Part shown: piece by piece, positions 2,517-49,323 of the stretch
Layout: each line of letters starts with the position of its first letter
How positions within the stretch are numbered: position 1 is the first letter of the stretch
NCBI GenBank assembly: GCA_030604405.1
Contig: JAUVVY010000004.1
Coordinates: 86,853-150,852, forward strand
Direction: 5' to 3'
From: a bacterium
GTDB taxonomy: Bacteria; Armatimonadota; Zipacnadia; Zipacnadales; UBA11051
Length of the DNA stretch: 64,000 bases
Notes under the pieces: model-generated
The model's database searches: none
What the model was told of the DNA's origin: nothing
The model's input: the letters and a program-made list of their open reading frames with translations, nothing else
Made by a program: the position numbers and the translations under genes

Positions 2517-2860
2517 TGCTCCAGGGCGTCGTAGTGTCAAACATGTGAGGACGGCCACACAAGTGTCGGAGACGGACCTCGAACTGTGGCGGGAATGCCA
2601 GAGGGCGAAGGAAAACCGCGGAGCAAGAGCCGCTGGTGCAGGAAGCAAAGCGCGTCCTTGCCACTTGCGACGACTTTGTGACCACCGACGCCTACTATCA
2701 CCAGCGTATAACGGCTGACCAGATATTGACAGCGCGAGAGCAAATCGCCTCTGAAATTGAGAAGATATCGAAAGTATTGGGCGACTAGCAAGGAGCCTGG
2801 ACCATCTCGCGAACTCGGGGCAACATTGCCTGGCGTGAGATCTATGCGACGGCATGAAGA

Positions 2861-3544
2861 TTGAAGCTTTGTCAGCTTAGGTCGCTATTCGAATACTCTT
2901 TGGAGGTGGACGCCATACTTAGCGGAGTTGAGAAGACAGCAGATGCGATTCGTGAGCGGCTCGACGTGCTTGACGGCGTACGTGAAAAGGCCTACAAGCT
3001 TTCGCGCGAGATCGTACGTGCCTCGTCAATAACGATAAAGCACATGCACCGCAACGAGGTTGATGAGGCGCGCGGGCAACTGGGCGCGACCGCGGCACTT
3101 GTTGCCGAAATGCAGGAGGCGCTCGCCGACGCACCCCAACTCAGCCGCGGCGGCTTCGTTGCAGACGCGGAGAAGGAATACGTCGAGGCCGCAATAGTGA
3201 TCGCCTGCATAGCCGGCGAAGACGTTCCGGATCACGCGACGCTGGGCGTATGCGGGGCAGTATGGCTCAACGGGCTGGCCGAGGTGGTGGGTGAGCTACG
3301 CCGTCATGTGCTGGACCTCATCCGCATGGGCGAGCCGGAGCGCGCGGAAGAATTCCTCGCCGCAATGGACGACATCTATCAGATTATCATGTCCTTCGAT
3401 TACCCCGACGCTATCACGTTGGGTTTGCGCAGACGCTCTGACGCGGCCCGGGGCATGGTAGAGAGAACCCGTGGCGATCTCACCAACGCGCTGCGCCAGG
3501 CCAGCCTCGAAAAACGATTGGGGCAGCTCGAAGAGCGGCTGTGA
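2861..3544 (+). CDS. translin-family protein (bacterial/archaeal translin-like nucleic-acid-binding protein)
   Basis: 227 aa. Motifs EKEYVEAAIV, GLAEVVGELRRHVLDLIRMG, DDIYQII, YPDAITLGLRRRSDAARGMVERTRGDL match the conserved translin-family C-terminal signature (GLADLTGELRR ... PDALT-GLRRK-D-AR-IERTR-DL). Confidence 0.6.
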   Translation: MKLCQLRSLFEYSLEVDAILSGVEKTADAIRERLDVLDGVREKAYKLSREIVRASSITIKHMHRNEVDEARGQLGATAALVAEMQEALADAPQLSRGGFVADAEKEYVEAAIVIACIAGEDVPDHATLGVCGAVWLNGLAEVVGELRRHVLDLIRMGEPERAEEFLAAMDDIYQIIMSFDYPDAITLGLRRRSDAARGMVERTRGDLTNALRQASLEKRLGQLEERL

Positions 3545-3792
3545 AGAGCACGCGGCCTCGGCGGATGACGTCAGTGAGTTCGTTAGCGGAAGAAGTTGCA
3601 GCCCGGTGACTTCGTCGCCGAACGGCAAAAACACCACTATAGGACATTTTCACTTTGCAGCAATAGGACATTATCACGTTGCGCTTACACTCTCTCCGCC
3701 ATCTGTTGACACACCTGCCGAATGCAGTTAGAATAGCGCGAATGTCCGCCAGCCAAGCACAGGTAAAACTGCAACCATGCAACGTGTGGCCT

Positions 3793-4701
3793 ATGAGTGC
3801 TACGGGCCTGATAACCGATATCAAGAAATTCGCAATCCACGACGGGCCGGGCATCAGGACAACAGTCTTTCTCAAGGGCTGTCCGATGCGGTGTCTTTGG
3901 TGCCATAACCCGGAAACACAGAGTGACGAGCCCATTGTGGGCTATCTGCAGGCCAACTGCATCGGCTGCGAGAAGTGTATTGAGGCCTGCCCGCAAGACG
4001 CACTGTCGTCGGGTAAAGATGGCATAGTCAGAGATCGCGTCGTTTGCACCAACTGCGGCGCGTGCGTGGAAGTCTGCCCGGCCGAGGCCATGATCATGTA
4101 CGGCAAAGAGGCGACGGTGGCCGAGGTCATGGCCGAGGTGGAAAAGGATCGTCCGTTTTACGAGAACTCCGGCGGCGGGGTAACGCTTTCGGGCGGCGAG
4201 CCGCTGCATCAGCCTGAGTTTGCTGTCGCGCTTCTGAAGGCAGCCAAGCAAGCGGGCTTGCACACCTGTGTGGATACTTGTGGATACGTGCCGTGGTCCG
4301 CATTCGAGGCAACTTTGCCCTATACAGACCTGGTGCTTTACGACATCAAGTCAACCAATGACGCAGTTCACCACGAATATACAGGCTGCCCGAGCGCGCT
4401 GATAGTACAGAATCTCGAAGCGCTGCTCGAGGATGACGTTGAAGTGCTGGTCCGGACGCCGGTGGTGTCGGGGTTCAACGCTACGGTGGAGGATCTGGCT
4501 GCCATCGCGGGCCTTTTGACGGGCTTGACGCGGCTTGTGGACATGGAACTGTTGGCCTATCATGAACTCGGTGAAGCGAAGTTTGAGCGACTGGGTATGA
4601 CGTATGAGTTGCAGGGCCTGAAACCACCCGGCAAGGAATTGATGGCGGAACTGGCTCAGACTGTGCAGGACCGCGGAGTCAACTGCAGAGTCGGAAACTA
4701 A
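3793..4701 (+). CDS. glycyl-radical enzyme activating protein (radical SAM, PflA family, with two extra ferredoxin-like 4Fe-4S motifs)
   Basis: Radical-SAM motif GCPMRCLWCHNPE (CxxxCxxC). Two CxxCxxCxxxCP ferredoxin motifs (CIGCEKCIEACP, CTNCGACVEVCP). SGGEP SAM-binding motif. The N-terminal KKFAIHDGPGIRTTVF is typical of GRE activases. The start is placed at internal Met39 (MSATGL) of the track ORF 3679..4701; Met22 at 3742 is an alternative. Confidence 0.75.
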   Translation: MSATGLITDIKKFAIHDGPGIRTTVFLKGCPMRCLWCHNPETQSDEPIVGYLQANCIGCEKCIEACPQDALSSGKDGIVRDRVVCTNCGACVEVCPAEAMIMYGKEATVAEVMAEVEKDRPFYENSGGGVTLSGGEPLHQPEFAVALLKAAKQAGLHTCVDTCGYVPWSAFEATLPYTDLVLYDIKSTNDAVHHEYTGCPSALIVQNLEALLEDDVEVLVRTPVVSGFNATVEDLAAIAGLLTGLTRLVDMELLAYHELGEAKFERLGMTYELQGLKPPGKELMAELAQTVQDRGVNCRVGN

Positions 4702-4802
4702 CAGACAGACTGCATACGTCGGATTGCGCGGTGGCCGTCATCAATGACGGGCACCGTTATTTGTGTGTGTTCGCCAACGCTGGAACCTGGTGGAGTTGAT
4801 TG

Positions 4803-7800
4803 ATGCCTAAACGCGCCGACATAAATAGCATTCTCCTCATCGGCTCAGGCCCGATCATCATTGGGCAGGCCTGTGAATTCGATTATTCCGGCACCCAGGC
4901 CTGCAAGGCGCTGCGCGAGGAAGGCTACGAGGTTATCCTGGTTAACTCCAACCCGGCCACCATCATGACCGACCCCGAAATGGCCGACCGGACCTATATC
5001 GAGCCGCTGACCGTCGAAAGCGTCACTGAGATCATGGCCAACGAGAAGCCCGATGTACTGCTGCCCACAGTGGGTGGGCAGACGGCGCTTAACCTGGCGC
5101 TGCAACTGGCTGAGACCGGGGCGCTGTCTCGGTACAACGTCGAGCTAATCGGGGCCTCGCGCAAGGCGATAAAGAAGGCCGAGGACCGCGAGCTTTTCAA
5201 AGACGCAATGGTTGCCGCCGGCCTGGAGGTCCCGCAAAGTGGCTTCGCTTCCAATCTGCGTGACGCGCGGCTGATAGCGGACGAGATAGGTTTCCCGCTT
5301 ATTATCCGCCCGTCCGGCACTCTAGGTGGCAGTGGGGGCGGCATTGCCAGCAATATGGAAGAGTTGGAGCACGCCTGTGCCAGAGGCATTGACGCCAGCC
5401 CGATGAACGAGGTACTTGTCGAAGAATCTGTCATCGGCTGGAAAGAGTACGAACTCGAGGTCATGCGCGACCGCAAGGACAATGTGGTTATCGTCTGCTC
5501 CATCGAAAACCTCGACCCGATGGGCATCCATACCGGTGATTCGATTACCGTAGCCCCCGCCCAGACGCTGACAGACCGTGAATACCAGATCATGCGCGAC
5601 CAAGCTATCAGAATCATGCGCGAGATCGGTGTTGACACCGGCGGCTCTAATATCCAGTTCGCCATCAACCCGCAAGATGGGCGCATGGTGGTGATCGAGA
5701 TGAACCCGCGCGTGAGCCGCTCGTCGGCGCTGGCCTCCAAGGCGACCGGCTTCCCGATCGCCAAGATCGCCGCTAAGCTTGCCGTCGGCTACACGCTCGA
5801 CGAGATCTCCAACGACATCACCCGCGAGACGCCCGCGTGCTTCGAGCCAACGATAGACTATGTTGTGACTAAGATCCCACGCTGGGCTTTTGAGAAATTC
5901 CCCGCTGCCGACCCGACGCTGATGACGCAGATGAAATCGGTGGGCGAGGCGATGGCGATCGGGCGCACCTTCAAAGAGTCGCTGCAGAAGGGCATCCGCA
6001 GTCTCGAAATCGACCGCTTCGGCCTGGGCGCGGATGGCAAGGGCGTGCATTACGACCAGATGCCGGCCGAGGAGCTCAAGCGCCAGCTTCTGCTCCCGCA
6101 CCCCGACCGCCTCTTCCAGCTCCGCAGCGCCATGCGCGCGGGAATAAGCGTTGAAGAGCTTTACGATATCACTGGCATTGACCCCTGGTTCCTCTACAAC
6201 ATCCAGCAGATAGTCGAAATGCAGGATGAGATAGTCAAGTACCGCGACCCACCCGAGGCGGATAGCATTGACCCCGAGGCAAGAGCGGCCTCGTCGCCGC
6301 TTCCGACTGATGTGATGCGCGAGGCCAAGCGGGCCGGGTTTTCTGACCAGCAGATCGCGGTACTGACGCAAACCGATCCCGCGCACATACGCCAGGTGCG
6401 CAAGGAGCTAGGAATCGAGCCTGTGGTCAAGCTGGTGGACACCTGCGCCGCCGAATTCGAAGCGTACACGCCATACTATTACCTGACCTACGAGCAGGAG
6501 GACGAGCACCGGCGCACCGATGCCAAGAAAGTTGTGATCCTGGGTGCCGGGCCTAACCGCATCGGCCAGGGGATAGAGTTCGACTACTGCTGCGTACATG
6601 CCGCCTTTGCGCTCAGCGAAGACGGCTATGAGACGATAATGGTCAACTCCAACCCCGAGACCGTCTCCACCGACTACGACACCTCGGACAAACTGTACTT
6701 CGAGCCGCTCACGGTTGAGGACGTGCTCAATATCTGCGAAAAGGAAAACCCCTACGGCGTGATGATGCAGTTCGGCGGCCAGACTCCGCTTAACTTGGCC
6801 AGAGAGCTGGTCGAGCACGGCGTTGCGATACTGGGCACTACCGCTGATAGCATTGACCGCGCCGAAGACCGCGAGCGCTTCAAGCAACTGCTCGAAAAGC
6901 TTGGCTGCCGCCAGCCCGACAACGCCACAGCCACCAGCGTGGAGGGAGCCATCGCAGCCGCAATCACCATCGGCTATCCGGTGGTGGTCAGGCCCTCGTA
7001 TGTGTTGGGCGGCCGGGCCATGCAGATCGTCTATAACGATGAGACGCTGGCCGAGTACATGGCGTGGGCCCTTGAGGCCTCGCCCGAGCACGCCGTCCTC
7101 ATTGACGAATTCCTCGAAGATGCCGTCGAGATAGATGTGGACGCTGTCGCTGATGGCGAGCGCTGTGTCATCGGCGGCATCATGGAGCACATCGAGGAGG
7201 CCGGCGTCCACTCCGGCGATTCAGCATGCGTTCTGCCGGCGTTCTCCCTGGCAGAGACTGAAGCCCAGGAGATCCGCGAACAGACCGAGGCCATCGCCCT
7301 GGAACTGCAGGTCATAGGCCTACTCAACATCCAATACGCCATCCGCAACGAGCAGCTTCACGTGCTGGAGGTCAATCCACGCGCCTCCCGCACTGTGCCG
7401 TATGTGTCCAAGGCGATCGGGGTGCCGCTGGCCAAGATCGCAGCCCGGGTCATGGTCGGCAAGAGCCTGGAAGAGCTGGGCTTCACCGAAGAGATTCAGC
7501 CTCCACACATGGCCGTCAAGTGCCCGGTCTTCCCGTTCAGCAAGTTCGCCGGTGTGGATACGCTGCTGGGGCCGGAGATGAAGTCCACCGGCGAGGTCAT
7601 GGGCATAGACGAACACTTCGGCGCTGCGTTTGCGAAGGCTTATATCGCCGCCGGTCACGATCTCCCCGACCGCGGCACCATCTTTATCTCCGTGCGCAAC
7701 CGCGACAAGCGCGATGCAATCTTCCTGGCCAAGCGGCTGTCAGAGCTGGGCTTTGACATCGTGGCCACCCGGGGCACAGCCCATGTGCTGAGCCGCTGCG

Positions 7801-8087
7801 GTGTCAAGGCTGAGGAGATCTCGCGCCTTTCCGACCCCAGTGGCGGCCGCAACTCCATTGACCTGATCCGCGACGGCCGCATTGACCTGATCATCAATAC
7901 CCCCACCGCCGGCCAGGAGCCGCGCGAAGACCAGATTGCTATCCGCCGCGAAGCGGTGCTTTACAAAGTGCCGTGTATTACGACGATGGCGGGTGCGATG
8001 GTCGCTGCCCTGGGCCTCGAAGCCCTGCGTGACGGCCACATTGACCCGAAACCGCTGCAGGAATACCACCGCGCGATGGTCGAATAG
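4803..8087 (+). CDS. carB: carbamoyl-phosphate synthase large subunit
   Basis: 1094 aa. N-terminal [33 protein letters not shown]. Two ATP-grasp halves (second: [26 protein letters not shown]). C-terminal MGS-like domain. Start taken at the second Met of the track ORF. Confidence 0.95.
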
Positions 8088-8093
8088 AGAGTT

Positions 8094-8169
8094 AGATTGG
8101 GGACAACCCATTTCTTGTAATTTCTGTAAGTCCTACTCCTCTGCAGCAACAGGTGACTGTCCCCAATTT
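8094..8169. repeat. copy A of IR-flanked 5'-leader element (degenerate, about 76 bp)
   Basis: Arms gattggggacaacccatttc ... caggtgactgtccccaattt with interior atttctgtaagtcctactcct. This is related to copies at 11980 and 22321. It ends about 20 nt before AGGAGG and the ATG of the 8181 gene. Confidence 0.55.
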
Positions 8170-8180
8170 AGCCAGGAGGA

Positions 8181-11100
8181 ATGACAATGTCAGCGCAAAA
8201 CATCTTTGTGGCGGTACTAATCATTGTGGTGCTGAGTGCTGTTAATAGTTTCGCTGACGACGTTATCATACCGGCCGATGAGCCGCTGATGGACTGGTCG
8301 CCGTGGGAGAAGTATCGCAGTACGGTACAGCACCCGGCCGGGTACATAAACGCCCAGGACCTGGAAAACGCCCGCGAGAATATCAAGCGCTACCAGTGGG
8401 CGAAGGACTATGTGCAGGGAATCGAAGCCAACGTCGTGGCGCACCTGGAGAAGTTCACTCCCGAATTCCTCGAGCAGATGATACCGGCCAACTCCGTGCA
8501 GCGGTGCTTCCAGTGTCCGGCATGTCGTGACAAGGACCTGCCACGACATCCGGGTGGCGCCTGGGCCTGGTCAGTTGATGATCCAGAGCACATCAAGTGC
8601 CGGCTGTGCGGCACCGTTTTCCCCAATGACGAATACCCCGAGACAATTGTGCTCGAGTGCCAGTCGGAGGCCGGCAAGGGACAGAAGTTCAGCTACTACG
8701 GCGGCGAACCGTTCCAGCAGTGGGGTTATGCTCATTGCCGGCCCAGCTTCTCCGGCCATGTACGCTACTGCAAGGTCGGGTGGTCTAGAGGCAGGGCATA
8801 CCAGTTCGCCCTCGCCTACGCACTCACTGAAAAGCCGGAGTATGCGGAAGTGACGCGCAAGATACTCCTGCGCTTCGCCGAGGTGTACCCGCACTGGCTG
8901 CTGGTTTCCGACTATGGTGAGGTCGCGGACATGGATCCGCACATAGCGGCGCTCAACCTCGATCACCTGCCGGAGGATGAATTGGTCTATCCGCCGAACC
9001 AGCCGAACCGCAAGCTCTACGCGGGCTATTGGCAGAGCGGCAAAGCCGGCGGGGGGGCGGATGCACAGGGCGGTTTCACACAGATGATGCTGCAGACCTA
9101 TGAGCTGGCCCACAATGCCAAGAAAGCTGATGGGACGCCGCTTTTTAGCGAAGAAGAACGGATCAAAATCGAGCGCGATCTAATTCTGGAAAGCTGCATT
9201 CACCTGTACGCTCATAAGGGTATCAATAACAAGTCTGTCAGTGGGCGGAAAGCCGTGGGCATGGTCGGGGTAGCGCTGGGCCTGCCCGGCTTTGTGCGCT
9301 TCGGGCTGGAGGGCTGGAAGCTGACGATGGATGACTGGTTCCTGGCCGATGGCTGCACACCCGAGTCACCGGGCTATGCGATGATGACCCTTGGGGGGAT
9401 GTACTCGCTTGCGCAGGCGCTCCGGGATTACTCCGACCCGCCGGGCTATGTGGATCAAGATGGGAATCGGATAGACAGTCTCAACCTCTACGAGGGTAAG
9501 TACAAGCTGGTCTGGCAGCGGATGTTTGAAGGCCTGCAGGGGAATCTGCGCTACCCGCCGTATGCAGATTCGTATCGCACCACGGCCCTGGGTGCACGAT
9601 TTTGCGAGCTTCTGGCCGCCAACTATCCTGACAACCTGCAATACCTGGCGCTGCTGAAGGCGTATGCGGGCGATGACCTGAGCAAAGCCGACCGCCAGAC
9701 GGCGCTGTTTTTCCGGCAGCCAGGCCTGCAGGAGAAAGAAACGCCGCCGCTGCGTTTCGACGACAACTTCTTCCCGATTCTTTGTCTCGGCCAACTCCGC
9801 AGCGGCGAGCACGGGCGCAAGTCGCTGGCCCTGCTCAGCGCCACCCACTGGGGCGGCCATCATCAGTCCGACAGCCTCAACCTGTACTACTGGCAGGATG
9901 GTCACGAGCTGCTGACTGACTTCGGCTATCTCTGGGACCACCCGATGCACAAGATGATCAGTCGCACCTTTGCCCACAACACCGGCATGGTGGACCTCAC
10001 CGGCCAGAAAGCCAAGGGCCGCGGCGGGTATGTTCACCTGTTCCACACTGGTGAGAAGATCAAGGTCATGGAAGCCTCATCGCACGCCTACGACAAGGCC
10101 GACATTTACCGCCGTACCGTTGTGCAGATTGACCATGCGCCGGATAATTCATATCTCGTGGACATCTTTCGTCTCCAAGCCGATGGCTCTCGTGACCTGG
10201 TCTATCACGGCCCAAACAGCGACTACCAGCTATCAGGCATAGAGCTACAGGAAGGCAAGATTGCCCCTGAGGAGAAAGAAATCCGCTTCGCCCTGCGCTT
10301 CCATCTGGCGGGTGAGACTGACGAGATATTCGTTGATGACGTCAGCATCAAGCTCGCCGACGGCACCGAAGTGGCAGTCAATCCATCAATCACCGAGATG
10401 AATGAGAAGACAGACAAGCCGGCGGGATGGAACCACTATTCCGGTGACGGTGCAGTTGAGTGGGGCGCCTCATCGCCGGGCCGCAGCGACGATCACTGCG
10501 CGTATCTGAAGGTGACAGGGAAGCCAAAGAAGAGAGTGAATCAGGCGCTGATGCACGGCGATACCAAGGGCTACACCGGAACCAACGCCCTGCAGATGCG
10601 CGAGGGCAGCAAGGGCAAGGTCAGCTTCTGGATACGGGGCAAGGCGGCCGCCTGCAATGTCGGATTTGTGATGTGGCCCAACGACCCCAATAATCCCGGC
10701 GACCGCCAGCATATCGCTTTGGCGTCCATTCCCGCAACCGAGGAGTGGGTCCAGCACACGGTTGACTTTTCGTTCGAGAGGAGCAGGATGGACCTGGAGA
10801 ACGTCAAATCCGCACACAGCCCCGACACGTGGAGCGCCAGGTGGCAGGTAGCCGAAGACATGCAGCTTTCAGCTTACCATTGCGGACAGAGGGGCGAGGT
10901 TACCTGCATCGGCGACGGCTGGGGCCAGCGCGATCATCGCAACAGCGACCTCGGCGTCACCATCCCCTACATCGTCCGCCGCCATAAGCCCGACGAAGGC
11001 ATATCGGCCTTCTGCACCGTCTATGAAGGCCATAAGCCCGACGCAGGCCTGGTGAAATCGGCATTCCGTCTGGCCGTCCCTGAAGAGCAGCGAGACAACG

Positions 11101-11978
11101 TTGTGGTGCTGGCAATCGAGACGAAGCTGGGCACGGACCTCGTTGTGAGCCAGCTTGAGCCGGCTGAGATCGAGATTGACACTCCGGCAGGCAAGCTGCA
11201 AACTGATGCCGCAGTCGCCGTTATATCCGTCCAGGACGGCCGCGTCGCGTTCGCCGCCGCCGCTGCAGGAAGCATGCTGCGGCTGAATGGGAAAGAACCG
11301 CCTATGGAGGAATTGCAGCGAGATTCAGCACTTGGCGAGCAGGCGAGTGCAAGCCCCGTTTCTGCCTCTTCAAGGGAGCCCTGGGCAAAGCCGATGTGGG
11401 TGATTCACCGAGGCGGCGAAGACGGCGTGCCGGAAAACACGATGGTGGCGATTAAAGACTCCGTAGAACTCGGGGCCAAGTATATCGAGATTGACCTCCA
11501 TGCCACCGCAGACGGCAAGATAGTGCTCTTGCATGATGAACTCGACCGCACCACCACCGGCACCGGCAAGCTATCTGAGTACACCTGGGAGCAGGTTAAG
11601 GACCTCGACGCCGGCTCGTGGAAGGACCCCGAATTCAGCCACGCCCGCATACCGTTGCTGTCGGAGGTGCTCGCGTACTGCAAAGAGCATGAGGTAAAGA
11701 TATTGCTCGACATCAAGGACCCCAACGCCGCAGGCGCCAACCTTTACGAACTCCTCGAACGCCACGATATGGTTCAGGACGCCCGGGTCTATATGCTCGC
11801 CGGCGCTTCCCAGCCTGCGGTGAAGGCCGCTTTGGATCCGCGTGTGGTGCAATTCCCCGGCAGCCTGGTTCAGCCGTGGGGCAATGATACGCCCGCTCAA
11901 AAGATGCAGCAGGCGCTGGATAACGAAAAGTCCATGGGCGCCCTTCTGCGCTCGTACCGGCCTGTGCTGGACTTCTAG
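8181..11978 (+). CDS. secreted multidomain protein: heparinase II/III-like polysaccharide lyase domain, CBM-like beta-sandwich, C-terminal glycerophosphodiester phosphodiesterase (GDPD) domain
   Basis: Signal peptide MTMSAQNIFVAVLIIVVLSAVNSFA. Cys4 cluster CFQCPAC...CRLCG. Heparinase II/III C-terminal signature HWGGHHQSDSLNLYYWQDGHELLTDFGY. CBM-like segment with EWVQHTVDF. GDPD signature VIHRGG..PENT...A....GAKYIEIDLHATADGKIVLLHDELDRTTTGTG...T..E...LDAGSW. Confidence 0.7.
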   Translation: MTMSAQNIFVAVLIIVVLSAVNSFADDVIIPADEPLMDWSPWEKYRSTVQHPAGYINAQDLENARENIKRYQWAKDYVQGIEANVVAHLEKFTPEFLEQMIPANSVQRCFQCPACRDKDLPRHPGGAWAWSVDDPEHIKCRLCGTVFPNDEYPETIVLECQSEAGKGQKFSYYGGEPFQQWGYAHCRPSFSGHVRYCKVGWSRGRAYQFALAYALTEKPEYAEVTRKILLRFAEVYPHWLLVSDYGEVADMDPHIAALNLDHLPEDELVYPPNQPNRKLYAGYWQSGKAGGGADAQGGFTQMMLQTYELAHNAKKADGTPLFSEEERIKIERDLILESCIHLYAHKGINNKSVSGRKAVGMVGVALGLPGFVRFGLEGWKLTMDDWFLADGCTPESPGYAMMTLGGMYSLAQALRDYSDPPGYVDQDGNRIDSLNLYEGKYKLVWQRMFEGLQGNLRYPPYADSYRTTALGARFCELLAANYPDNLQYLALLKAYAGDDLSKADRQTALFFRQPGLQEKETPPLRFDDNFFPILCLGQLRSGEHGRKSLALLSATHWGGHHQSDSLNLYYWQDGHELLTDFGYLWDHPMHKMISRTFAHNTGMVDLTGQKAKGRGGYVHLFHTGEKIKVMEASSHAYDKADIYRRTVVQIDHAPDNSYLVDIFRLQADGSRDLVYHGPNSDYQLSGIELQEGKIAPEEKEIRFALRFHLAGETDEIFVDDVSIKLADGTEVAVNPSITEMNEKTDKPAGWNHYSGDGAVEWGASSPGRSDDHCAYLKVTGKPKKRVNQALMHGDTKGYTGTNALQMREGSKGKVSFWIRGKAAACNVGFVMWPNDPNNPGDRQHIALASIPATEEWVQHTVDFSFERSRMDLENVKSAHSPDTWSARWQVAEDMQLSAYHCGQRGEVTCIGDGWGQRDHRNSDLGVTIPYIVRRHKPDEGISAFCTVYEGHKPDAGLVKSAFRLAVPEEQRDNVVVLAIETKLGTDLVVSQLEPAEIEIDTPAGKLQTDAAVAVISVQDGRVAFAAAAAGSMLRLNGKEPPMEELQRDSALGEQASASPVSASSREPWAKPMWVIHRGGEDGVPENTMVAIKDSVELGAKYIEIDLHATADGKIVLLHDELDRTTTGTGKLSEYTWEQVKDLDAGSWKDPEFSHARIPLLSEVLAYCKEHEVKILLDIKDPNAAGANLYELLERHDMVQDARVYMLAGASQPAVKAALDPRVVQFPGSLVQPWGNDTPAQKMQQALDNEKSMGALLRSYRPVLDF

Positions 11979-11979
11979 G

Positions 11980-12077
11980 AAATTGGGGACAGTCACCTAT
12001 TTCCTATCATCTCCGGAGTCTCCACTCCTATTCCTGTATGGGCTAGACTGGCGGAAATAGATGACTGTCCCCAATTT
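11980..12077. repeat. copy B of IR-flanked 5'-leader element (98 bp)
   Basis: Left arm aaattggggacagtcacctatttc, right arm gaaatagatgactgtccccaattt (23/24 complementary). Interior agtctccactcctattcctgtatggg. Followed by ccaggagg and the ATG at 12093. Confidence 0.65.
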
Positions 12078-12092
12078 CCAGGAGGTGATCAG

Positions 12093-12491
12093 ATGTCTTT
12101 TGGAATGTATGCAGCAGGACGAGCGATACTTGGAGCGCTTTATCCGGCCTGGTGGGCGTTCGCCTATCAGATTCCCATCGGCCTGCTGGTGGCCTACATC
12201 GTCTTCTGGCAACAGTCAGAAGACAGAGACAAGCTCAGGACATTGCTGACTCCGGCGGCAATCAGCGGCGGCATAGGTAGCGCCGTGTACGCCCTTTTGG
12301 CAATGCTGCCCCTGGCACTGACAACTGTGATCGGCCTGGTCGCCATGTGGTTCATTGTTTCTTTCACGGCGGATCGCTATCTCGACATTGACCTGGATAA
12401 GAGCAACAGGATCACTGCCGCCATTTGCGTGCCGATATGGATCTTGTGGCTTATCATCGGGGCGGTGTTTGTCGTCCTTCGGGCGAGTTAG
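12093..12491 (+). CDS. small integral membrane protein, about 4 TM helices, hypothetical
   Basis: 132 aa, four hydrophobic segments. Strong RBS (ccaggaggtgatcagATG). Confidence 0.55.
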   Translation: MSFGMYAAGRAILGALYPAWWAFAYQIPIGLLVAYIVFWQQSEDRDKLRTLLTPAAISGGIGSAVYALLAMLPLALTTVIGLVAMWFIVSFTADRYLDIDLDKSNRITAAICVPIWILWLIIGAVFVVLRAS

Positions 12492-12501
12492 AAGCTGGTC
12501 T

Positions 12502-13560
12502 TCAGCCCTTCAGGCATTTGTCGAAGAACGGGAACGCCTTGACGCCGGTAAAGGCGTGGCCGCCCTCGAATATCTCCTGCTGCAGCACTCTCTCCGCGCC
12601 CTGGTCGCGATAGATCCGCTTGAGCGCCTTGTATGCCTTGCGGAAGCTTTTCACAGGTGCCACGTCATCCTCGTCGGCGGTGGTGACCAGCAGCGGCCGC
12701 GGGCAGATTAAGCCGCAGACATCGTCCTGCTCGAAGTAGCGCAGCAGACTGGGCACGTAGTTGCAGTTGCAGTGCGTCACATCCATTATCTGCTCGGTCC
12801 AGTAGCAGAAATAGCCCTGGATGCAGGCCACCTTGATGCGCGCATCAACGGCGCTAAGTAGCTCGGTGGTGTGGCCGCCGCCCGACAGCCCGATACAGCC
12901 CAGAGCCACATTCTTCTCGTCCGGCCGCCGCTTGATCCAGTCAATCAGGTGCATGGCATCCTGCACCCGCAGGCCGATATCGCTGGTGCCGAGCAGAATC
13001 GCGCGGGCGTTGATGTCCACACAGGAATTGCCTACGCCGGTCTCGACCGGATCACCCTGGTCATTGCGCTGGTTGAAGCCGCGCTGGCAGGGCGCATAGA
13101 CCAGGTACCCTCGGCGGGCGAACTGCGCGCCATAGGTGTAGTTGTGTTGTTTGATGGTTTCTTTCTCGCCCGGGCGGCCCTCATCCACACCCGCCACCGG
13201 GTCGGCCCCAAAGGGGCCATGACCGTGCAGAGCCAGCAGGACGCAATCCGGCTTTGCCATCGCGTCAGGCACCAGCCGGTAGAACAGGATGTGGTCGCCG
13301 AAGGGCGATTCCACGGCCCACTTTTCACGCCTGAAGCCCTGGTCCTGCTCTTCGCCCAGAAGCCAGCTTTTCGGCTGCTTTACCCGCACCGGCAAGAAGC
13401 CGAGTAGTTGTTTCAGCTGCTTGCGCGCCTTGGTCTGCCAGCTTTTGAAATTGCGCTTGCCGCCGGCCTCATCGTAGCCCATCAGCCTGGGCATGTGCTC
13501 ATTCATCCCGTTGAGCAGTGCTACGGTGCTTCGCAGCTTGAGTTTGGGGTGCCGCATCAT
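12502..13560 (-). CDS. alpha/beta-hydrolase fold esterase (acetyl-xylan-esterase / dienelactone-hydrolase-like)
   Basis: GLSGGG nucleophile elbow, HGHGPFG region, about 350 aa. Confidence 0.55.
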   Translation of the reverse strand: MMRHPKLKLRSTVALLNGMNEHMPRLMGYDEAGGKRNFKSWQTKARKQLKQLLGFLPVRVKQPKSWLLGEEQDQGFRREKWAVESPFGDHILFYRLVPDAMAKPDCVLLALHGHGPFGADPVAGVDEGRPGEKETIKQHNYTYGAQFARRGYLVYAPCQRGFNQRNDQGDPVETGVGNSCVDINARAILLGTSDIGLRVQDAMHLIDWIKRRPDEKNVALGCIGLSGGGHTTELLSAVDARIKVACIQGYFCYWTEQIMDVTHCNCNYVPSLLRYFEQDDVCGLICPRPLLVTTADEDDVAPVKSFRKAYKALKRIYRDQGAERVLQQEIFEGGHAFTGVKAFPFFDKCLKG

Positions 13561-19326: not shown

Positions 19327-19575
19327 CTGTAATTGTACAAATTCTGCTAACGGCTGGGCCGGATTCTCCGGTGCCACCCACTGCGCACTCACACCTCCGG
19401 TGTGGGTACCCGGCACCTCCGTATGCGGCCCCTCCGCAAAACAACGTCTAAGCCTTTGAGCGCGTAGGTCGGGCTTTCCAGCCCGACAGCCGTTGTCGTC
19501 CGGAGGGGCCGCATGGAGGTGAGTTTGCCTGCAAACTCACGGCCATCCGGCCCAAGACTTGTCACAGCACCAGCG
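19327..19575. mobile_element. MITE-like structured repeat, copy 1 (truncated, about 250 bp)
   Basis: Shares about 130 bp of core with 38939..39266: ...aacgtctaa.cctttgagcgcgtaggtcgggctttccagcccgacagccgttgtcgtccggaggggccg.atgg...atccggcccaagactt.tcaca. The left end ctgtaattgtacaaattctgct resembles the terminal inverted repeat of copy 2. The right end overlaps the last four codons and stop of gene 19562..21028. Confidence 0.6.
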
Positions 19576-21159: not shown

Positions 21160-22302
21160 CTATTCGTACACCCCGTACTGCTTGCAGCACCGCCAGTAGG
21201 TTTCCAGGTTCTCCCTGGGCGTTCCCTCGCGGAAGCTGTCGGAGGAGCCGATGATGAAACCACCGCCGGGCTTGGCTATCTGCATCGCCTCGGCCACGGT
21301 CTGCTCGACCAGCTCCGGCGTGCCGTGTTTGATCACGTACAGCAGGTCCACATAGCCCTTGATGGTGGTCTTGTGCCCGATCTTGTCCTTGGCCTCGCGC
21401 AGGTCAAAATCGCCTACCGGCGGCGGCGTGCAGGTCTCCAGCACATCTATGCCGGTATCGGCAATCATCGCCATGCTGTCCGCGAGCTTGCCGTCATCAT
21501 AGAAATCGTAAGGAGCCCCGTATGAGTGGGTCAGCTCGACGTGCTCTTTAATCTCGGGGACAAAGATTTCCTGGTAGATCTTCGGCGACCAGCCGGCTGA
21601 GAGCGAATTGTAGTACCAGCTTCCGAATATGGCCTCTACACCGGCTTCGAGGGCGGCCCTAATGCGCTGCAGTGAACGCTCATGGAAAATGCCCAGCAGG
21701 CTGTCGAAGAACTCCCTGTCGTCGTAGTAGTCCATCATCAGCTCCTGCATGTCGCGCGCCTGGCCGGCATTGTGGTCCAGGGAGCTGCGTATGCAGACGA
21801 GAACGATGCCGCGGTCGCCGATGATCTCCTTGGTCTGGTGGTAGTAGTCGAAGTCGGTGCTTATTTCCGGCAATATGTAGGCGAGGCTCTCCAGGTCTTC
21901 AGCGGCCTTGACCAGATACTCGGTCTTTATTGCGTTGGGCGAGACGCCGTATTCGCGGCCCGACGGCGGGATCTTGGTGCGGTCTGAGAGGTCTCCCGCC
22001 GGGGTCTGAAAGACTCTCTCTACGACCTTATAGGCGCCCTCTTCGTAGCGTTTCTGCTCAACCTCCACCTCGGGCAGATCGTATTCGTCCGGGTAGCTGG
22101 TTACGTAGTCGCGAGTGCCGTCCCCAAGGATGTGCATGTAGTCCAGGTCGGGGAGCATCCCAAGCTCTTTTTCCAGGGGCACCGAGCCATACTCGGAGAG
22201 GAGCCATGCCGCATACCGCGGCGATATCGGCACGCGGTCGGGTTCCTCATGTCGCATCGTAGTCAGCAGCCGCTCACGTCCTGTCATTTCAGCTTTTGGC
22301 AT
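21160..22302 (-). CDS. uroporphyrinogen-decarboxylase (URO-D) family protein
   Basis: About 380 aa URO-D/MtaA-like fold. The start could be the GTG at 22311 or the ATG at 22302 (RBS agggtgag). Confidence 0.6.
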   Translation of the reverse strand: MPKAEMTGRERLLTTMRHEEPDRVPISPRYAAWLLSEYGSVPLEKELGMLPDLDYMHILGDGTRDYVTSYPDEYDLPEVEVEQKRYEEGAYKVVERVFQTPAGDLSDRTKIPPSGREYGVSPNAIKTEYLVKAAEDLESLAYILPEISTDFDYYHQTKEIIGDRGIVLVCIRSSLDHNAGQARDMQELMMDYYDDREFFDSLLGIFHERSLQRIRAALEAGVEAIFGSWYYNSLSAGWSPKIYQEIFVPEIKEHVELTHSYGAPYDFYDDGKLADSMAMIADTGIDVLETCTPPPVGDFDLREAKDKIGHKTTIKGYVDLLYVIKHGTPELVEQTVAEAMQIAKPGGGFIIGSSDSFREGTPRENLETYWRCCKQYGVYE

Positions 22303-22320: not shown

Positions 22321-22418
22321 AAATTGGGGACAGTCACCTATTTCTTCGCATTTCCGCAGTCTCCACTCGTATTCCTGTACGGGGTAAATTGGCTGAAATA
22401 GGTGACTGTCCCCAATTT
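22321..22418. repeat. copy C of IR-flanked 5'-leader element (98 bp, perfect 24-bp arms)
   Basis: aaattggggacagtcacctatttc ... gaaataggtgactgtccccaattt, interior agtctccactcgtattcctgtacgggg. It lies directly upstream (minus strand) of the RBS and start of 21160..22302. Its other end overlaps the stop codon of 22417..23076. Confidence 0.7.
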
Positions 22419-23076
22419 ACAGAGCCTCTAACTCCTCATTAACTGTTCTCACCATTGCATCGAGAACGGTCGCAAACCGAGTCTGTCCGTACTCCACAGT
22501 GGCATCCACGCAGTCCTCGCTGATGCCATCGAGCGCATCGGGCCTGTCGAGTTGCTCCATGTCCACCAACTCGGGCCTCATGTGCAGCATCGCGGAGGTC
22601 TCGATGATGCCGGCGTGTTCGCTACGAGGGTCTGTGGGGTGCAGGTTGAAGGGATCGAGCAGAATGATTTTCGATGCCGGGTGCCTGGCCATATACGCGT
22701 CAGCGATGCCCTGGATCAGCAGGCCCTGAACACGCGGGTAATGGCCGGTGCAGGCTACGATCAGCTTGAAGCCCTGCTGGTCGAGCTGGCTGAGCACATC
22801 GGCGACGATGCCGGCGATGGTCCCGTTGCTGAGCAAGAGCGAGCCGGGCCAGCCTACGTGTCCCTCAGTGCCCCAGAAGGTGGGCGGCAAGACCACGCCG
22901 CCGGTCTGCTGGGCCGCCTGCAGGCAGAGCTCGTGCGCGTGCATTGCATCGAAGCCGAACGGCAGATGGAAGCCGTGATACTCCAGCGACCCGATGGGAA
23001 AATAGACCAAAGGCGTCTGCTCGCGGACGGCTGCAAGCTCGTCCGGTCGCATTTCCTCATATCGGACTTTTCTCAT
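22417..23076 (-). CDS. creatininase-family amidohydrolase
   Basis: PIGSLEYHGFHLPFGFD (creatininase metal-binding motif). 219 aa. Confidence 0.65.
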   Translation of the reverse strand: MRKVRYEEMRPDELAAVREQTPLVYFPIGSLEYHGFHLPFGFDAMHAHELCLQAAQQTGGVVLPPTFWGTEGHVGWPGSLLLSNGTIAGIVADVLSQLDQQGFKLIVACTGHYPRVQGLLIQGIADAYMARHPASKIILLDPFNLHPTDPRSEHAGIIETSAMLHMRPELVDMEQLDRPDALDGISEDCVDATVEYGQTRFATVLDAMVRTVNEELEAL

Positions 23077-28802: not shown

Positions 28803-28914
28803 AGAGATCTCCCGCACTGCGCGGATAGCAGTGTTATCAAGCGGCTGGTACGGCCTGGCCTGATGAGCGGGGACAGTCCCTGAAGGGACAGTCCCCCAGA
28901 GCATTCAGAATTCT

Positions 28915-38871: not shown

Positions 38872-38938
38872 CAGTAAAGCCTCCCTGAATTGGTCTGTTC
38901 TTACGTCACAAGCAGTCCTTCGTGGAGTCGGGCTGGAA

Positions 38939-39266
38939 CTGTAGTTATGCAAATTCCTGGTCTGTGGCTCATCCATCTGTAATTGTAGGCGCTGGTGCTG
39001 TGATGCGCCTTGGGCCGGATAGGGAACGCGGATTTTGCTTTCGCAAAATCCACCCTATTCGGTCCCTCCGAAAGACAACGTCTAAACCCTTGAGCGCGTA
39101 GGTCGGGCTTTCTAGCCCGACAGCCGTTGTCGTCCGGAGGGGCCGAATGGGGATGAGAGTTTCGAAGAAACTCGAAGGGGCCCCCATCCGGCCCAAGACT
39201 TATCACGCCAGCATTGCCTGTTACGAACAAGGGCTCATCACCTACCAGAAATTTGCATAACTACAG
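38939..39266. mobile_element. MITE-like structured repeat, copy 2 (full length, about 328 bp) with 23-bp terminal inverted repeats
   Basis: Terminal inverted repeats ctgtagttatgcaaattcctggt / accagaaatttgcataactacag. About 80-nt imperfect inverted termini. Internal hairpins (gtcgggctttctagcccgac; gagtttcgaagaaactc) carry compensatory changes relative to copy 1. Track ORFs 38969..39196(-) and 19389..19691(-) share RPLRTTTAVGLESPTYALKGLDVV because both come from this repeat. Confidence 0.7.
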
Positions 39267-39350
39267 CGGAAGCCCGACCTACGCGGAGGATGGGATAATT
39301 GGCTCCCCATTTCGCGATCTACGCGACGAATCAGACAATTGCTTGTATGC

Positions 39351-41867: not shown

Positions 41868-42103
41868 GCACCTCCACCTGTGATCTGCTGACCACAAAAA
41901 TGGTGCCCTTGACAAGGCACTCTTGCGACTGGCTGTCAGGTCTTAATTATGGGTCTCCCGCCAACTTATTCGCCGAAACCGTCCTAATTCCTGCAAACGA
42001 GATCTTTTTTTCTCTTCTCGCATACAGGAATGCAGGGCGGTATTGCTGAATTGAAAAGGGTAGGTATTTCACAGCGAAAACGCCGCAAGGAAAGTGACTT
42101 CAA

Positions 42104-46974: not shown

Positions 46975-49323
46975 TTACTGCTGGCCCTCTAGCTCGACCA
47001 AGGCCGCCTCGATCGCCTCCCGCACGACCGGCAGCTTCTCTACGACCAGGCGGGAGCGGAGGGGCTGGATGGCGCGCACGTCGCCCAGCTTGCCCAAGGC
47101 CTCCGCCGCTGGACGGCGCACTCCGGCGTATTTGTCCCTTAAGCCGAATATGAGTGGCTCAACTGCGCGGCGGTCGCCAAACTTGGCCAACGCCTCCGCC
47201 GCCGTCCGAAAGAGATAGGGCTGATCGCGATCCAACGCAGAGATGAGAGGCTCGATGGCCCGGTCGTCCCCGATCTCCCCCAGCGCCTTTGCCGCGGCAA
47301 CGCTTGTGAAGAGAGGCTGCTGGTTCAATAGCATGATAAGTGGCTCGACGGCACGCGGGTCCCCAAGTGCGCCGAGCGCTTTCACCGCATCGCGACAGAA
47401 TTGCGAGCTTGCGACTACGTGTGCCACCAGCGGCTCCAGTGCACGCGCATCGCCAAGTTTGCCCAACGCCTCCGCCGCCCTGAAGCTCCGCCATTTGTCG
47501 CCGGACTCGAAGAATGGCAGCACGTACGGAATTGCCCGCGGATCGCCCAGCTTTCCCAGCGCGCCTACCGCAGAGCTCTGGACCTCCTTATGGTCATCGT
47601 TGGTGGCCGCGAACAGCGGCTCTATCGCGCGCGGATCGCCGATCTTACCAAGCGCCCACGCCGAGGCCTTGCGCACCTCAAACCCCGGGTCCTTCAGAGC
47701 GGCTATGAGTGGCTCAACTACCTGCGGGTCGGCGATGTCAGCCAGGGTACTGGCAGCGGTACACCGCACTTTCACGTCCTCGTCTTCGTCCTGCAACAGG
47801 CCGATGAGTAGCTTTGCCGCCTGGGGACTGCCGTTGTAGGCCAGAGCCCCCGCCGCGCGATAGCGGAGGTTGTCGTCCTCGTCCTTCATGACGCCGACTA
47901 GTAGCTCCAGCGCCCGCGGGTCGCCGCTGTGACTCAACGCGTAGTTCGCATCGAATCTGCCATACCTCTTGCGTGTCTTGAAGGCTGCTACCAGAGGCTC
48001 GGTGCCACGGGGATCCCCAATCGCGGCCAATGCCGAAGCCGCAGCATTGCTGACATCGTTATCTTCATCCTCTAGTGTAGCGATGAGGGGCTCCACAGCT
48101 CTGGGGTCGCCAAACTCGCACAATGCAGATGCCGCGCACCGCCGCACGTCCTTGTCCTCATCCTCCAAAGTTGCCATTACTGGCTCGACCGCCTGCAAGT
48201 CGCCGATCGTCCCCAGTGCTGTCGCTGCGGCGGAACGAACGCGGTTGGCTTCATCTTTCAGTGCGACTATGAGCGGCTCGACGGCCCGCGGGTCCCCGAG
48301 CTTGCCCAGCGCCACTGCTGCGTATGCGCCCACCCTCGGATTCTCATCTTCTAGTGCGACTATCAGCGGCTGCAGTGCCCGTATGTCACAAAGCCAGCAT
48401 AGTCCCTCCGCCGCGCACCTGCGGACATCACTATCCTCGTCACCTAGTGCGGTGATGACTGGCTCGACCGCCCGCTTGTCGCCTAGCCAGCCCACCGAGA
48501 ATGCGGCAGCCCTGCGAACGCGGCTATCTTCATCCTTCAATGCGGCGATGAGCGGCTCGATAGCCCGCTCGTCGCCGACATCGCGTAACGCGTAGGCCGC
48601 AGCCCTGCGAATATCGCTATCATCATCTTGCAAGGCAACAATGAGAGGTTCAACAGCCTGCGGGTCGCCCAGTTCGGATAACGCGTTCGCGGCCGCCGAT
48701 ACGACACCGCTATTCTCATCCTGCAAGGCGGCAATCAGTTGCTCGACACTGCGCTGATCGCGAAGTTCGCCCAGTGCTCGGGCCACGGCCTCCCGCACCT
48801 GCGGACTGTGATCCGTGAATATGGAGAGAAGCGGCTCGACAGCTCGTCTATCGCGGGCTTCGGCCAATGCCTCTGCCGCGCCCACGCGAACAAGCTCGGA
48901 CTCATCGCCCAAGGCAGCCAGGAGGGGTGCAAACGCCGGCTCACCCATTCGCCCCAGGGCCTGTGCGGCTTCCTGGCCTGGCGATGTAGGCGCCGGCCCA
49001 CTGTCTGTCCACGAGTGGGTGCTTTTAGTGGGCGTTCTATCACCTAGTGTCTCCAGCAAGGCCAGTATGGACCCTTTGCCCCTCAAGCCCTTGCGCCCCA
49101 TCTCCGTCACGGTGTCAGATTTTTCGGTCGCGCTGCCGGTCCGCAGTATGGCTATATACGCCTTCTCGGCATCCGGTGCTTCCGCTTCCCACTGCAGTAG
49201 TTGGGCCTTGAGTTCGGGATGCTGATCGAGGAAGGTCAATTCGTCGGCGCCGCACGGGATCGCGCCCCACACCACCATAAGCACGAGAATCAACAGCCAC
49301 ATCCATTGACATCTCATAGACAT
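46975..49323 (-). CDS. secreted HEAT-repeat (PBS-lyase-type) protein, about 20 repeats
   Basis: Signal peptide [22 protein letters not shown] long array of about 31-aa repeats of the form A-PLI-AL-D-D--VR--AA-ALG-IGD. Confidence 0.8.

Follow-up and report, generated by a model that had tools for sequence, protein, structure and literature searches.

The window analysed here, a stretch of 64,000 nucleotides from a member of the Armatimonadota (class Ca. Zipacnadia), contains three copies of a short inverted-repeat element, each of which occupies the gap between two co-directional genes. Copy 1 (8094-8169, unstranded) lies between the stop codon of carB (8085-8087) and the Shine-Dalgarno (SD) sequence and ATG at 8187 of a gene encoding a heparinase-II/III-GDPD protein. 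Copy 2 (11980-12077) is found at the other end of the same gene, giving the order carB (4800-8087), copy 1, heparinase-II/III-GDPD gene (8187-11978), copy 2, and an open reading frame (ORF) for a membrane protein of 132 residues (12093-12491). Copy 3 (22321-22418) separates two minus-strand genes, a creatininase-family gene (22417-23076) and, following it, a URO-D-like gene (21160-22302). The genes flanking the three copies are functionally unrelated. The upstream stop codon is 6 nt away from copy 1 and 1 nt away from copy 2, and it overlaps copy 3 by 2 nt. From the end of the element to the next start codon, the distance is 17 nt for copy 1 (ATG 8187), 15 nt for copy 2 (ATG 12093) and 18 nt for copy 3 (ATG 22302, minus strand), slightly different from the 17-20 nt given in an earlier reading of the window that was made from the sequence only.

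The element is built from two inverted arms of ~27 nt with an invariant core, AATTGGGGACAGTCACCT, and a variable spacer of ~50 nt between them; the arm sequence can also be given as AATTGGGGACAGTCACC. Every intact arm has at its outer end the sequence GGGGACAG, a motif of the GGGGWSAS type. The left arm of copy 2 (11980-12003, plus strand) reads AAATTGGGGACAGTCACCTATTTC and includes this motif. The right arm of copy 2 (12054-12077, minus strand) reads GAAATAGATGACTG and has one mismatch, an A at position 12062, so that the two arms match at 23 of 24 positions; the unstranded interior (12004-12053) is 50 nt long. Copy 3 has two perfect arms, the left one at 22321-22344 (plus strand), 18 nt from the ATG of the URO-D-like gene, and the right one at 22395-22418 (minus strand), overlapped by the TAA (22417-22419) of the creatininase-family gene; its unstranded interior (22345-22394) is again 50 nt long. 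Copy 1 is a doublet of a ~83-nt subfamily, in which the right arm, caggtgactgtccccaattt, is intact and the left arm, agattggggacaacccatttc, has decayed (5 mismatches in 17). With up to three mismatches allowed, the 24-mer AAATTGGGGACAGTCACCTATTTC has five matches in the 64-kb window, compared with 0.00 expected from 100 shuffles, and a whole-window repeat scan recovered the same arm pairs.

The sequence-only reading had listed the same three copies at the same coordinates, and these are confirmed; the position of each copy directly behind a stop codon is not mentioned in it. The perfect 24-bp arms that it ascribed to 11980-12077 are a property of copy 3 alone, and what it took for a degenerate 98-nt element at 8094-8169 belongs to the shorter subfamily. 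It had also described a recurrence of an interior motif near 42030-42050. The sequence in question is ATTCCTGTA, at 42023 on the minus strand, a single 9-mer for which 0.24 matches are expected by chance; it therefore provides no evidence of relatedness. A CRISPR-like array was considered and rejected, the copies being single doublets 4-10 kb apart.

Copies 2 and 3 are predicted to form very stable hairpins. The calculated folding energy of copy 2 (11978-12079) is -63.2 kcal/mol as RNA (z = -5.4) and -29.1 kcal/mol as DNA (z = -7.4). The stem of copy 3 comprises 26 bp once a G-T-A / T-A-C extension of the perfect 24 nt is counted, with an energy of -56 kcal/mol as RNA (z = -6.4) and a z of -9.4 as DNA. 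Copy 1 folds no better than its shuffles (RNA z = -1.2). The stem of copy 2 runs past the repeat (11971-12086), such that the downstream AGGAGG pairs with the CUUCU that ends the upstream gene; the SD sequence of the ORF at 12093 may be sequestered in the folded RNA, and the pairing is possibly fortuitous. A search of the entire window against Rfam gave no match at gathering score; under a permissive E-value, the two copies searched matched only generic miRNA-precursor hairpin models (21-26 bits, compared with cut-offs of 63-90). In a scan of 7900-12600, neither sigma-70-like nor terminator-like sites fell within the elements more often than chance predicts. The repeat does not include the SD sequence, and conservation does not extend past position -3.

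The arm is widely distributed. We scanned 596 Gb of sequence, one genome per species, for exact matches to the 18-mer AATTGGGGACAGTCAYCT and obtained 71 loci (numbered with an L below), where ~35 single matches are expected by chance; partner arms were sought with two mismatches allowed. Most loci are paired, and 43 matches are hairpin doublets of 49-116 nt, in which the half-sites are ~50 nt apart, with a spacing that varies from 13 to 80 nt. According to the labels of the metagenome-assembled genomes (MAGs), the doublets are hosted by Planctomycetota/Phycisphaerae, Armatimonadota, Acidobacteriota, Nitrospiraceae, Hydrogenedentes, Omnitrophota, Eisenbacteria and Chromatiales, and the MAGs with the core AATTGGGGACAGTCACCT bear the labels of at least eight phyla. 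The closest resemblance to the window, at 85-90% identity, is to 'Armatimonadia' CAYMIN01 and Ca. Zipacnadia JALGTY01, both from the Armatimonadota. The ~83-nt subfamily of copy 1 is common in related genomes (L004, L016, L041, L053, L061 and L071). A search of viral contigs with the arm pattern gave no matches, and a search of paper text with 12- and 13-mers of the core returned only unrelated human primer sequences.

Arms of the same kind also flank a gene for an IS200-like Y1/HUH transposase of the RAYT type. At L047, L052, L069 and L070, two arms lie 759-789 nt apart, facing outward as in the doublets, and enclose an ORF of ~230 residues that reads MPRIARI..HITQRGNNRQD..CLMTNHVHL..YIE(L/R)NP..WSS... 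The encoded protein scores 52-65 bits against Pfam Y1_Tnp (cut-off 23). Its best-scoring family is NCBIfam NF047646, REP_Tyr_transpos, with 74-77 bits (73.8 and 77.1) at a cut-off of 80, while the NCBIfam IS200 model yields only 22-25 bits. In our alignment (A1), the transposases are 225-236 residues long and share the motifs NH[VI]HL, HLWQ, YIELNP/YIERNP/YVEQNP/YVERNA and WSSA. A PDB sequence search with the transposase profile gave weak matches to ISDra2 TnpA (E = 0.007) and did not return E. coli TnpAREP. We then scanned metagenomes with a profile built from four transposase proteins, which yielded 549 confirmed relatives, 80 of which were kept. The sequence GGGACAGTCACC, with at most two mismatches, is located upstream of the start codon in 45 of the 57 metagenomic homologues that are at least 49% identical (positions -42 to -109, mostly -52 to -59), and an inverted arm is found 7-68 nt downstream in 33 of 53; the chance rate is ~0.004 per flank. 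More distant homologues have different inverted repeats of the GGGGAC type. Given that the core accompanies the close homologues and other GGGGAC-type repeats the distant ones, arm and enzyme travel, and diverge, in company. All of the arm-flanked transposase genes are in organisms other than that of the window.

The sequences surrounding the 43 doublets contain no target-site duplication: the flanks are directly identical at 2, 3 and 4 nt in only 8, 1 and 0 copies, respectively. They are inverted-complementary at the same lengths in 32, 21 and 7 copies. Such a pattern would be expected of Y1/HUH enzymes, which transpose single strands, and not of DDE MITEs. The lack of a target duplication, taken together with the arms flanking a Y1/HUH gene, points to an element of REPIN/TIRYT type and not to a classical DDE-type miniature inverted-repeat transposable element (MITE). 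The pairing of the arms is maintained by compensatory changes. In 39 doublets, 90.8% of cells are paired, and the covariation score of 0.195 compares with 0.083 for shuffles (none of 500 reaches the observed value) and 0.035-0.069 for slid controls; these figures are inflated by the relatedness of the copies, which the slid controls retain. At each of the five pairs flanking the invariant core, both sides have changed in 9-16 of the 39 sequences. The arm-to-arm complementarity of the doublets is thus actively kept.

We examined the placement of the elements relative to genes in 21 copies at 18 independent sites, all from the same Armatimonadota lineage. Genes were called by codon usage, using a heuristic of our own that was trained on the lineage, and start sites are therefore approximate. 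The proximity to start codons seen in the window extends to the other copies: an ATG lies 16-25 nt from the arm edge in 11 of the 21, and eight of these 11 also have an SD-like motif. On 16 of 20 stop-facing sides a stop codon lies no more than 13 nt away, and several TAA or TGA codons overlap the outer bases of the arm, which indicates that the elements are squeezed into the short gaps of operons. The regularities on the stop side and on the start side are really one, namely that the doublets occupy short spacers within operons, where they adjoin the stop codon and have a pre-existing SD sequence immediately downstream. Copies are not confined to this arrangement: three sites are convergent and three divergent, with copies lying between convergent genes in L016, L019 and L030 and between divergent genes in L004, L021 and L027. 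Few copies are inside genes (40 of 44 are intergenic). One that is inside a gene is the 49-nt doublet at L037 3609-3657, from a Thermoanaerobaculia MAG, which continues in a stop-free frame within an ORF for an AMP-binding enzyme, immediately ahead of the IVYTSGTTGGPKG motif; this points to an intragenic copy that keeps the reading frame, like those described for some REP/RPE elements. The copy at L029 4309-4365 is likewise in a stop-free frame. Part of the placement is explained by purifying selection against insertions into coding sequence or the ribosome-binding site. A preference for the 3' ends of genes, such as has been noted for repetitive extragenic palindromic (REP) sequences (PMC3733652), or selection for an effect on RNA, may add to it.

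The arms of orthologous copies are identical at 47-48 of 48 positions. The interiors are less conserved, at 76-88% identity (88% between copy 2 and its orthologues in L019 and L030; 76% between copy 3 and its orthologue in L006, in which both arms are 24/24). In L019 and L030 the orthologue of copy 2 faces the other way with respect to the flanking genes and lies between two convergent stop codons, with no gene downstream of it. The orientation of the interior also bears no relation to gene direction within the window, where copies 2 and 3 have the same plus-strand orientation and their flanking genes are on opposite strands. Several gene-sized insertions or deletions adjoin the elements. The segment of 424 nt that abuts copy 2 (12078-12501, plus strand), comprising the SD sequence and the 132-residue ORF (12093-12491; four predicted membrane helices, no Pfam match), is absent from L019 and L030, where the element directly meets the stop codon of a convergent hydrolase gene. 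L007 has an extra gene for a protein of 382 residues (2669-3817) beside a single arm, at the position where the window has copy 3. In L030 (5306-5468), the equivalent of window positions 8080-11375 is missing, which removes most of the heparinase/GDPD gene (1263 codons).

On this evidence we think it very probable that the elements are non-coding mobile hairpin repeats, specifically REPIN-like dimers of terminal inverted repeats (TIRs) of the TIRYT/TIRtron class. This class was defined by Di Nocera (2013, PMC3733652) for RAYT-like genes that are flanked not by GTAG REPs but by long TIRs sharing the sequence GGGGWSAS, the TIR families being dispersed as singles, dimers or clusters; TIRYTs were judged to be 'less productive'. 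They have since been equated with TnpAY1 subclass 2.1, which is Group 1 RAYT in the scheme of Bertels (Quentin 2018, PMC6006769; Bertels 2017, PMC5581495). The signature of subclass 2.1 consists of NHVH, W[EQ], YIELNP and an SS tail in proteins with a median length of 238 residues (Quentin 2018, PMC6006769, Table 1); the GGGGWSAS consensus is quoted for this subclass too, and no REP-like sequences were found beside subclass 2.1 genes (Quentin 2018, PMC6006769). Our system resembles the published one in several respects: a RAYT-like Y1/HUH gene of ~230-240 codons is flanked by long TIRs with a GGGGWSAS motif (GGGGACAG) at the outer end; the repeats are dispersed as singles, dimers and clusters; the hosts include Acidobacteria, Planctomycetes and Proteobacteria; and the proteins, by motif comparison, have NHVH, WQ, a YIELNP-like sequence and SS within 225-236 residues. 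It is because the arm fits the TIRYT motif and the proteins fit subclass 2.1 that we regard the window elements as TIR dimers with a REPIN-like build. There are also differences. The present host belongs to the Armatimonadota, which are not named as TIRYT hosts in the papers cited here; a core of 12-18 nt is almost invariant across MAGs of at least eight labelled phyla; no cognate gene is seen in the present lineage; and doublets are dispersed here, whereas the published TIRYTs are without REP-like neighbours (Quentin 2018, PMC6006769) and 'less productive' (PMC3733652). A derivation of the doublets by internal deletion was considered and rejected, since a comparison by eye revealed no clear resemblance, outside the arms, between the doublet interiors and the subterminal regions of the L047 TIRtron. 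In that TIRtron, a good sigma-70-like promoter (2109-2155; TTGACG, ~17 nt, TACAAT) can be read by eye between the left arm and the ATG of the transposase gene, and the arm-proximal region may drive its expression.

Other systems fit less closely. REPINs and their RAYTs (Bertels & Rainey 2011, PMC3116915; Nunvar 2010, PMC2817692) have in common with the present elements an inverted pair of short repeats with a spacer, a hairpin that is kept by compensatory change, an extragenic location, persistence at orthologous sites, and a Y1 transposase gene bracketed by copies of the repeat. Unlike REPs, however, the present arms have no 5' GT[AG]G foot, and a single arm does not form a palindromic REP hairpin, its only symmetry being the trivial GAC-A-GTC; moreover, the transposase falls just under the NCBIfam RAYT cut-off and resembles Group 1, not the REPIN-forming Groups 2 and 3. 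Correia/NEMIS, ERIC and RUP elements are similar in size (80-150 bp), in their inverted-repeat ends of ~25 bp and in their insertion beside genes, and would likewise be co-transcribed into long stems that are possible substrates of RNase III. Those elements are attributed to DDE insertion sequences with target duplications (TA in the case of Correia), whereas here there are no duplications and the enzyme is of the Y1/HUH type. IS200/IS605 elements and PATEs share the Y1/HUH catalytic domain, the lack of target duplications and the recognition of hairpins on single-stranded DNA, but their ends are small, distinct subterminal hairpins instead of long TIRs, and the IS200 model scores poorly, as described above.

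A plausible mechanism would be as follows. On single-stranded DNA, the two arms of a doublet would fold into a stem of 24-27 bp. A TIRYT, encoded by one gene at another place in the genome and acting in trans, would recognise the arm stem, cut it and rejoin it. Doublets spread in this way would later be inherited vertically, and the survivors would be those insertions that spared coding sequence and the ribosome-binding site. With a possible additional preference for gene 3' ends, copies would come to lie immediately downstream of a stop codon, with ~15-20 nt left to the start codon that follows. Should expression be affected, this would be a side effect of transcription through a long stem, which might shield the upstream cistron at its 3' end or be cut between the cistrons by an activity of the RNase III type.

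Several observations weigh against the assignment to the TIRYT class. The weakest link is that a tblastn search found no Y1 transposase gene in the 64-kb window or in ~120 kb of related Armatimonadota loci, so that the cognate enzyme of the lineage is assumed and not seen. The proteins encoded between the arms in other organisms miss the threshold of the NCBIfam RAYT model by 3-6 bits. A BLAST comparison of the flanks of every copy with all loci retrieved occupied orthologues and no empty orthologous site, which makes mobility, and any target sequence, putative. The TIRYT papers do not report an experimental test of cleavage or transposition by any TIRYT. Finally, eight of the 18 occupied gaps leave 40 nt or less once the element is subtracted, while 2.9% of element-free intergenic bases lie in gaps of that size (binomial P ~2e-8, from rough gene calls). 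Such a strong bias towards short spacers hints at more than passive survival. When gaps are counted instead of bases, 30% of gaps are 40 nt or shorter, and P is 0.035 for eight of 18.

This bias is one of the arguments for a different view, in which the doublets are operon-internal RNA elements selected by the host, their 24-27 bp stem setting differential stability, processing or translation of the neighbouring cistrons; the mRNA-stabilising stem-loop proposed in the sequence-only reading corresponds to this view. We consider this unlikely as the primary explanation, although it is compatible with an origin from a transposase-driven repeat. In its favour are the close spacing to stop and start codons, the over-represented residual spacers of 40 nt or less, the conservation of arms at orthologous sites while the interiors decay, the pairing of AGGAGG with CUUCU in the extended stem of copy 2, and the published effects of REP and Correia/ERIC sequences on mRNA (PMC3733652). 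Recognition by a transposase would explain the conservation of the arms equally well, however, and further points against this view are the arms located between convergent or divergent genes, or in frame inside a gene (L037), the flip in orientation at an orthologous site, and flanking genes that are functionally unrelated.

The insertions and deletions that abut the elements (12078-12501 compared with L019 and L030, the gene for the 382-residue protein in L007, and 8080-11375 in L030), as well as the inversion of copy 2 between relatives, could suggest a recombination site or cassette boundary like the attC site of integrons, with the palindromes marking the places where segments the size of genes enter or leave. 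This is very unlikely. Direct reading of the sequence reveals no R''/R' cores (RYYYAAC/GTTRRRY) in the arms; the neighbours are large genes of the housekeeping type, such as carB, and not cassettes; there is no integrase nearby; and dispersed repeats of any kind are prone to rearrangement. The integron attC reading was rejected on inspection of these cores and of the large neighbouring genes.

The sequence-only reading had favoured a mobile leader or promoter cassette, that is, a classical MITE derived from a DDE element that delivers outward promoter and ribosome-binding signals to the genes beside it. The part that stands is the description of a miniature, non-coding, dispersed element with inverted repeats. 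An SD sequence and ATG do follow all three window copies at 15-18 nt, and TIRs are present. Nevertheless, the idea of a leader carrying outward signals is already largely refuted and, as a whole, scarcely credible: target-site duplications are missing, the arms flank a gene for a Y1/HUH and not a DDE transposase, promoter-like sites are no more frequent in the elements than by chance, the SD sequence is outside the repeat with no conservation beyond -3, the interior is oriented independently of gene direction, and the inverted orthologues of copy 2 in two relatives lie between convergent genes and have no gene to lead into. Least credible of all is an operator, a palindromic site for a host DNA-binding regulator of a regulon, since the perfect dyad symmetry and the invariant 18-nt core that would suit it are set against half-sites ~50 nt apart with a spacing that varies from 13 to 80 nt, unrelated flanking genes, copies between convergent genes, and an occurrence in many phyla that always tracks the transposase clade.

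The window contains other repeats. A near-palindrome of 28 nt at 28869-28896, GGGGACAGTCCCTGAAGGGACAGTCCCC, begins with a motif of the GGGGWSAS type and recurs at L071 6110-6137 and L032 5982-6009, identical (as the reverse complement) in one case and with two mismatches in the other. The sequence GGGACWGTCCC occurs 18 times in the 837 kb analysed, with ~1.6 occurrences expected, and the palindrome appears to represent another small family of repeats in the lineage. A two-copy repeat without an Rfam match (19416-19575 and 38927-39278; 89% identity over 108 nt) contains a canonical GTAG-footed REP hairpin, gcGTAGGTCGGGCTTTCyAGCCCGACag, which in the second copy is nested in longer inverted repeats with arms of 40 nt (38927-38966 and 39239-39278). 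At 47060-48880 there are ~17-20 tandem units with a period of 93 nt and 60-78% identity to the reference unit, which probably encode a repeat protein with units of 31 residues.

Assignment of the window elements to the TIRYT class means that an eye-catching repeat just upstream of start codons is explained as a transposase-linked hairpin element and not as a regulatory leader, and therefore no promoter or riboswitch annotation is warranted. Three features go beyond the descriptions cited here: the Armatimonadota host, a core that is nearly invariant across many phyla and is accompanied by its enzyme, and the very close fit of the copies between a stop codon and an SD sequence. Leads on site choice and on the reshaping of operons come from this close fit next to the ribosome-binding site, from the inversion of copy 2 between relatives and from the adjoining insertions and deletions, none of which would be unexpected for REP-like repeats. 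We put forward, as a tentative extension that we do not ourselves favour as yet, that one clade of Group 1 RAYTs/TIRYTs, whose core (G)GGGACAGTCACC is near-universal across at least eight phyla, might maintain long-lived, REPIN-like hairpin populations in many mostly uncultured phyla, with the doublets of the present lineage targeted to, or retained in, the space between stop codon and SD sequence as operon-internal elements of RNA processing or stability. The little-studied TIRYT/TIRtron class is in any event extended to the Armatimonadota by the assignment, and the sharing of one core with a transposase clade across distant phyla makes this clade well suited to a first biochemical test of arm recognition by a TIRYT.

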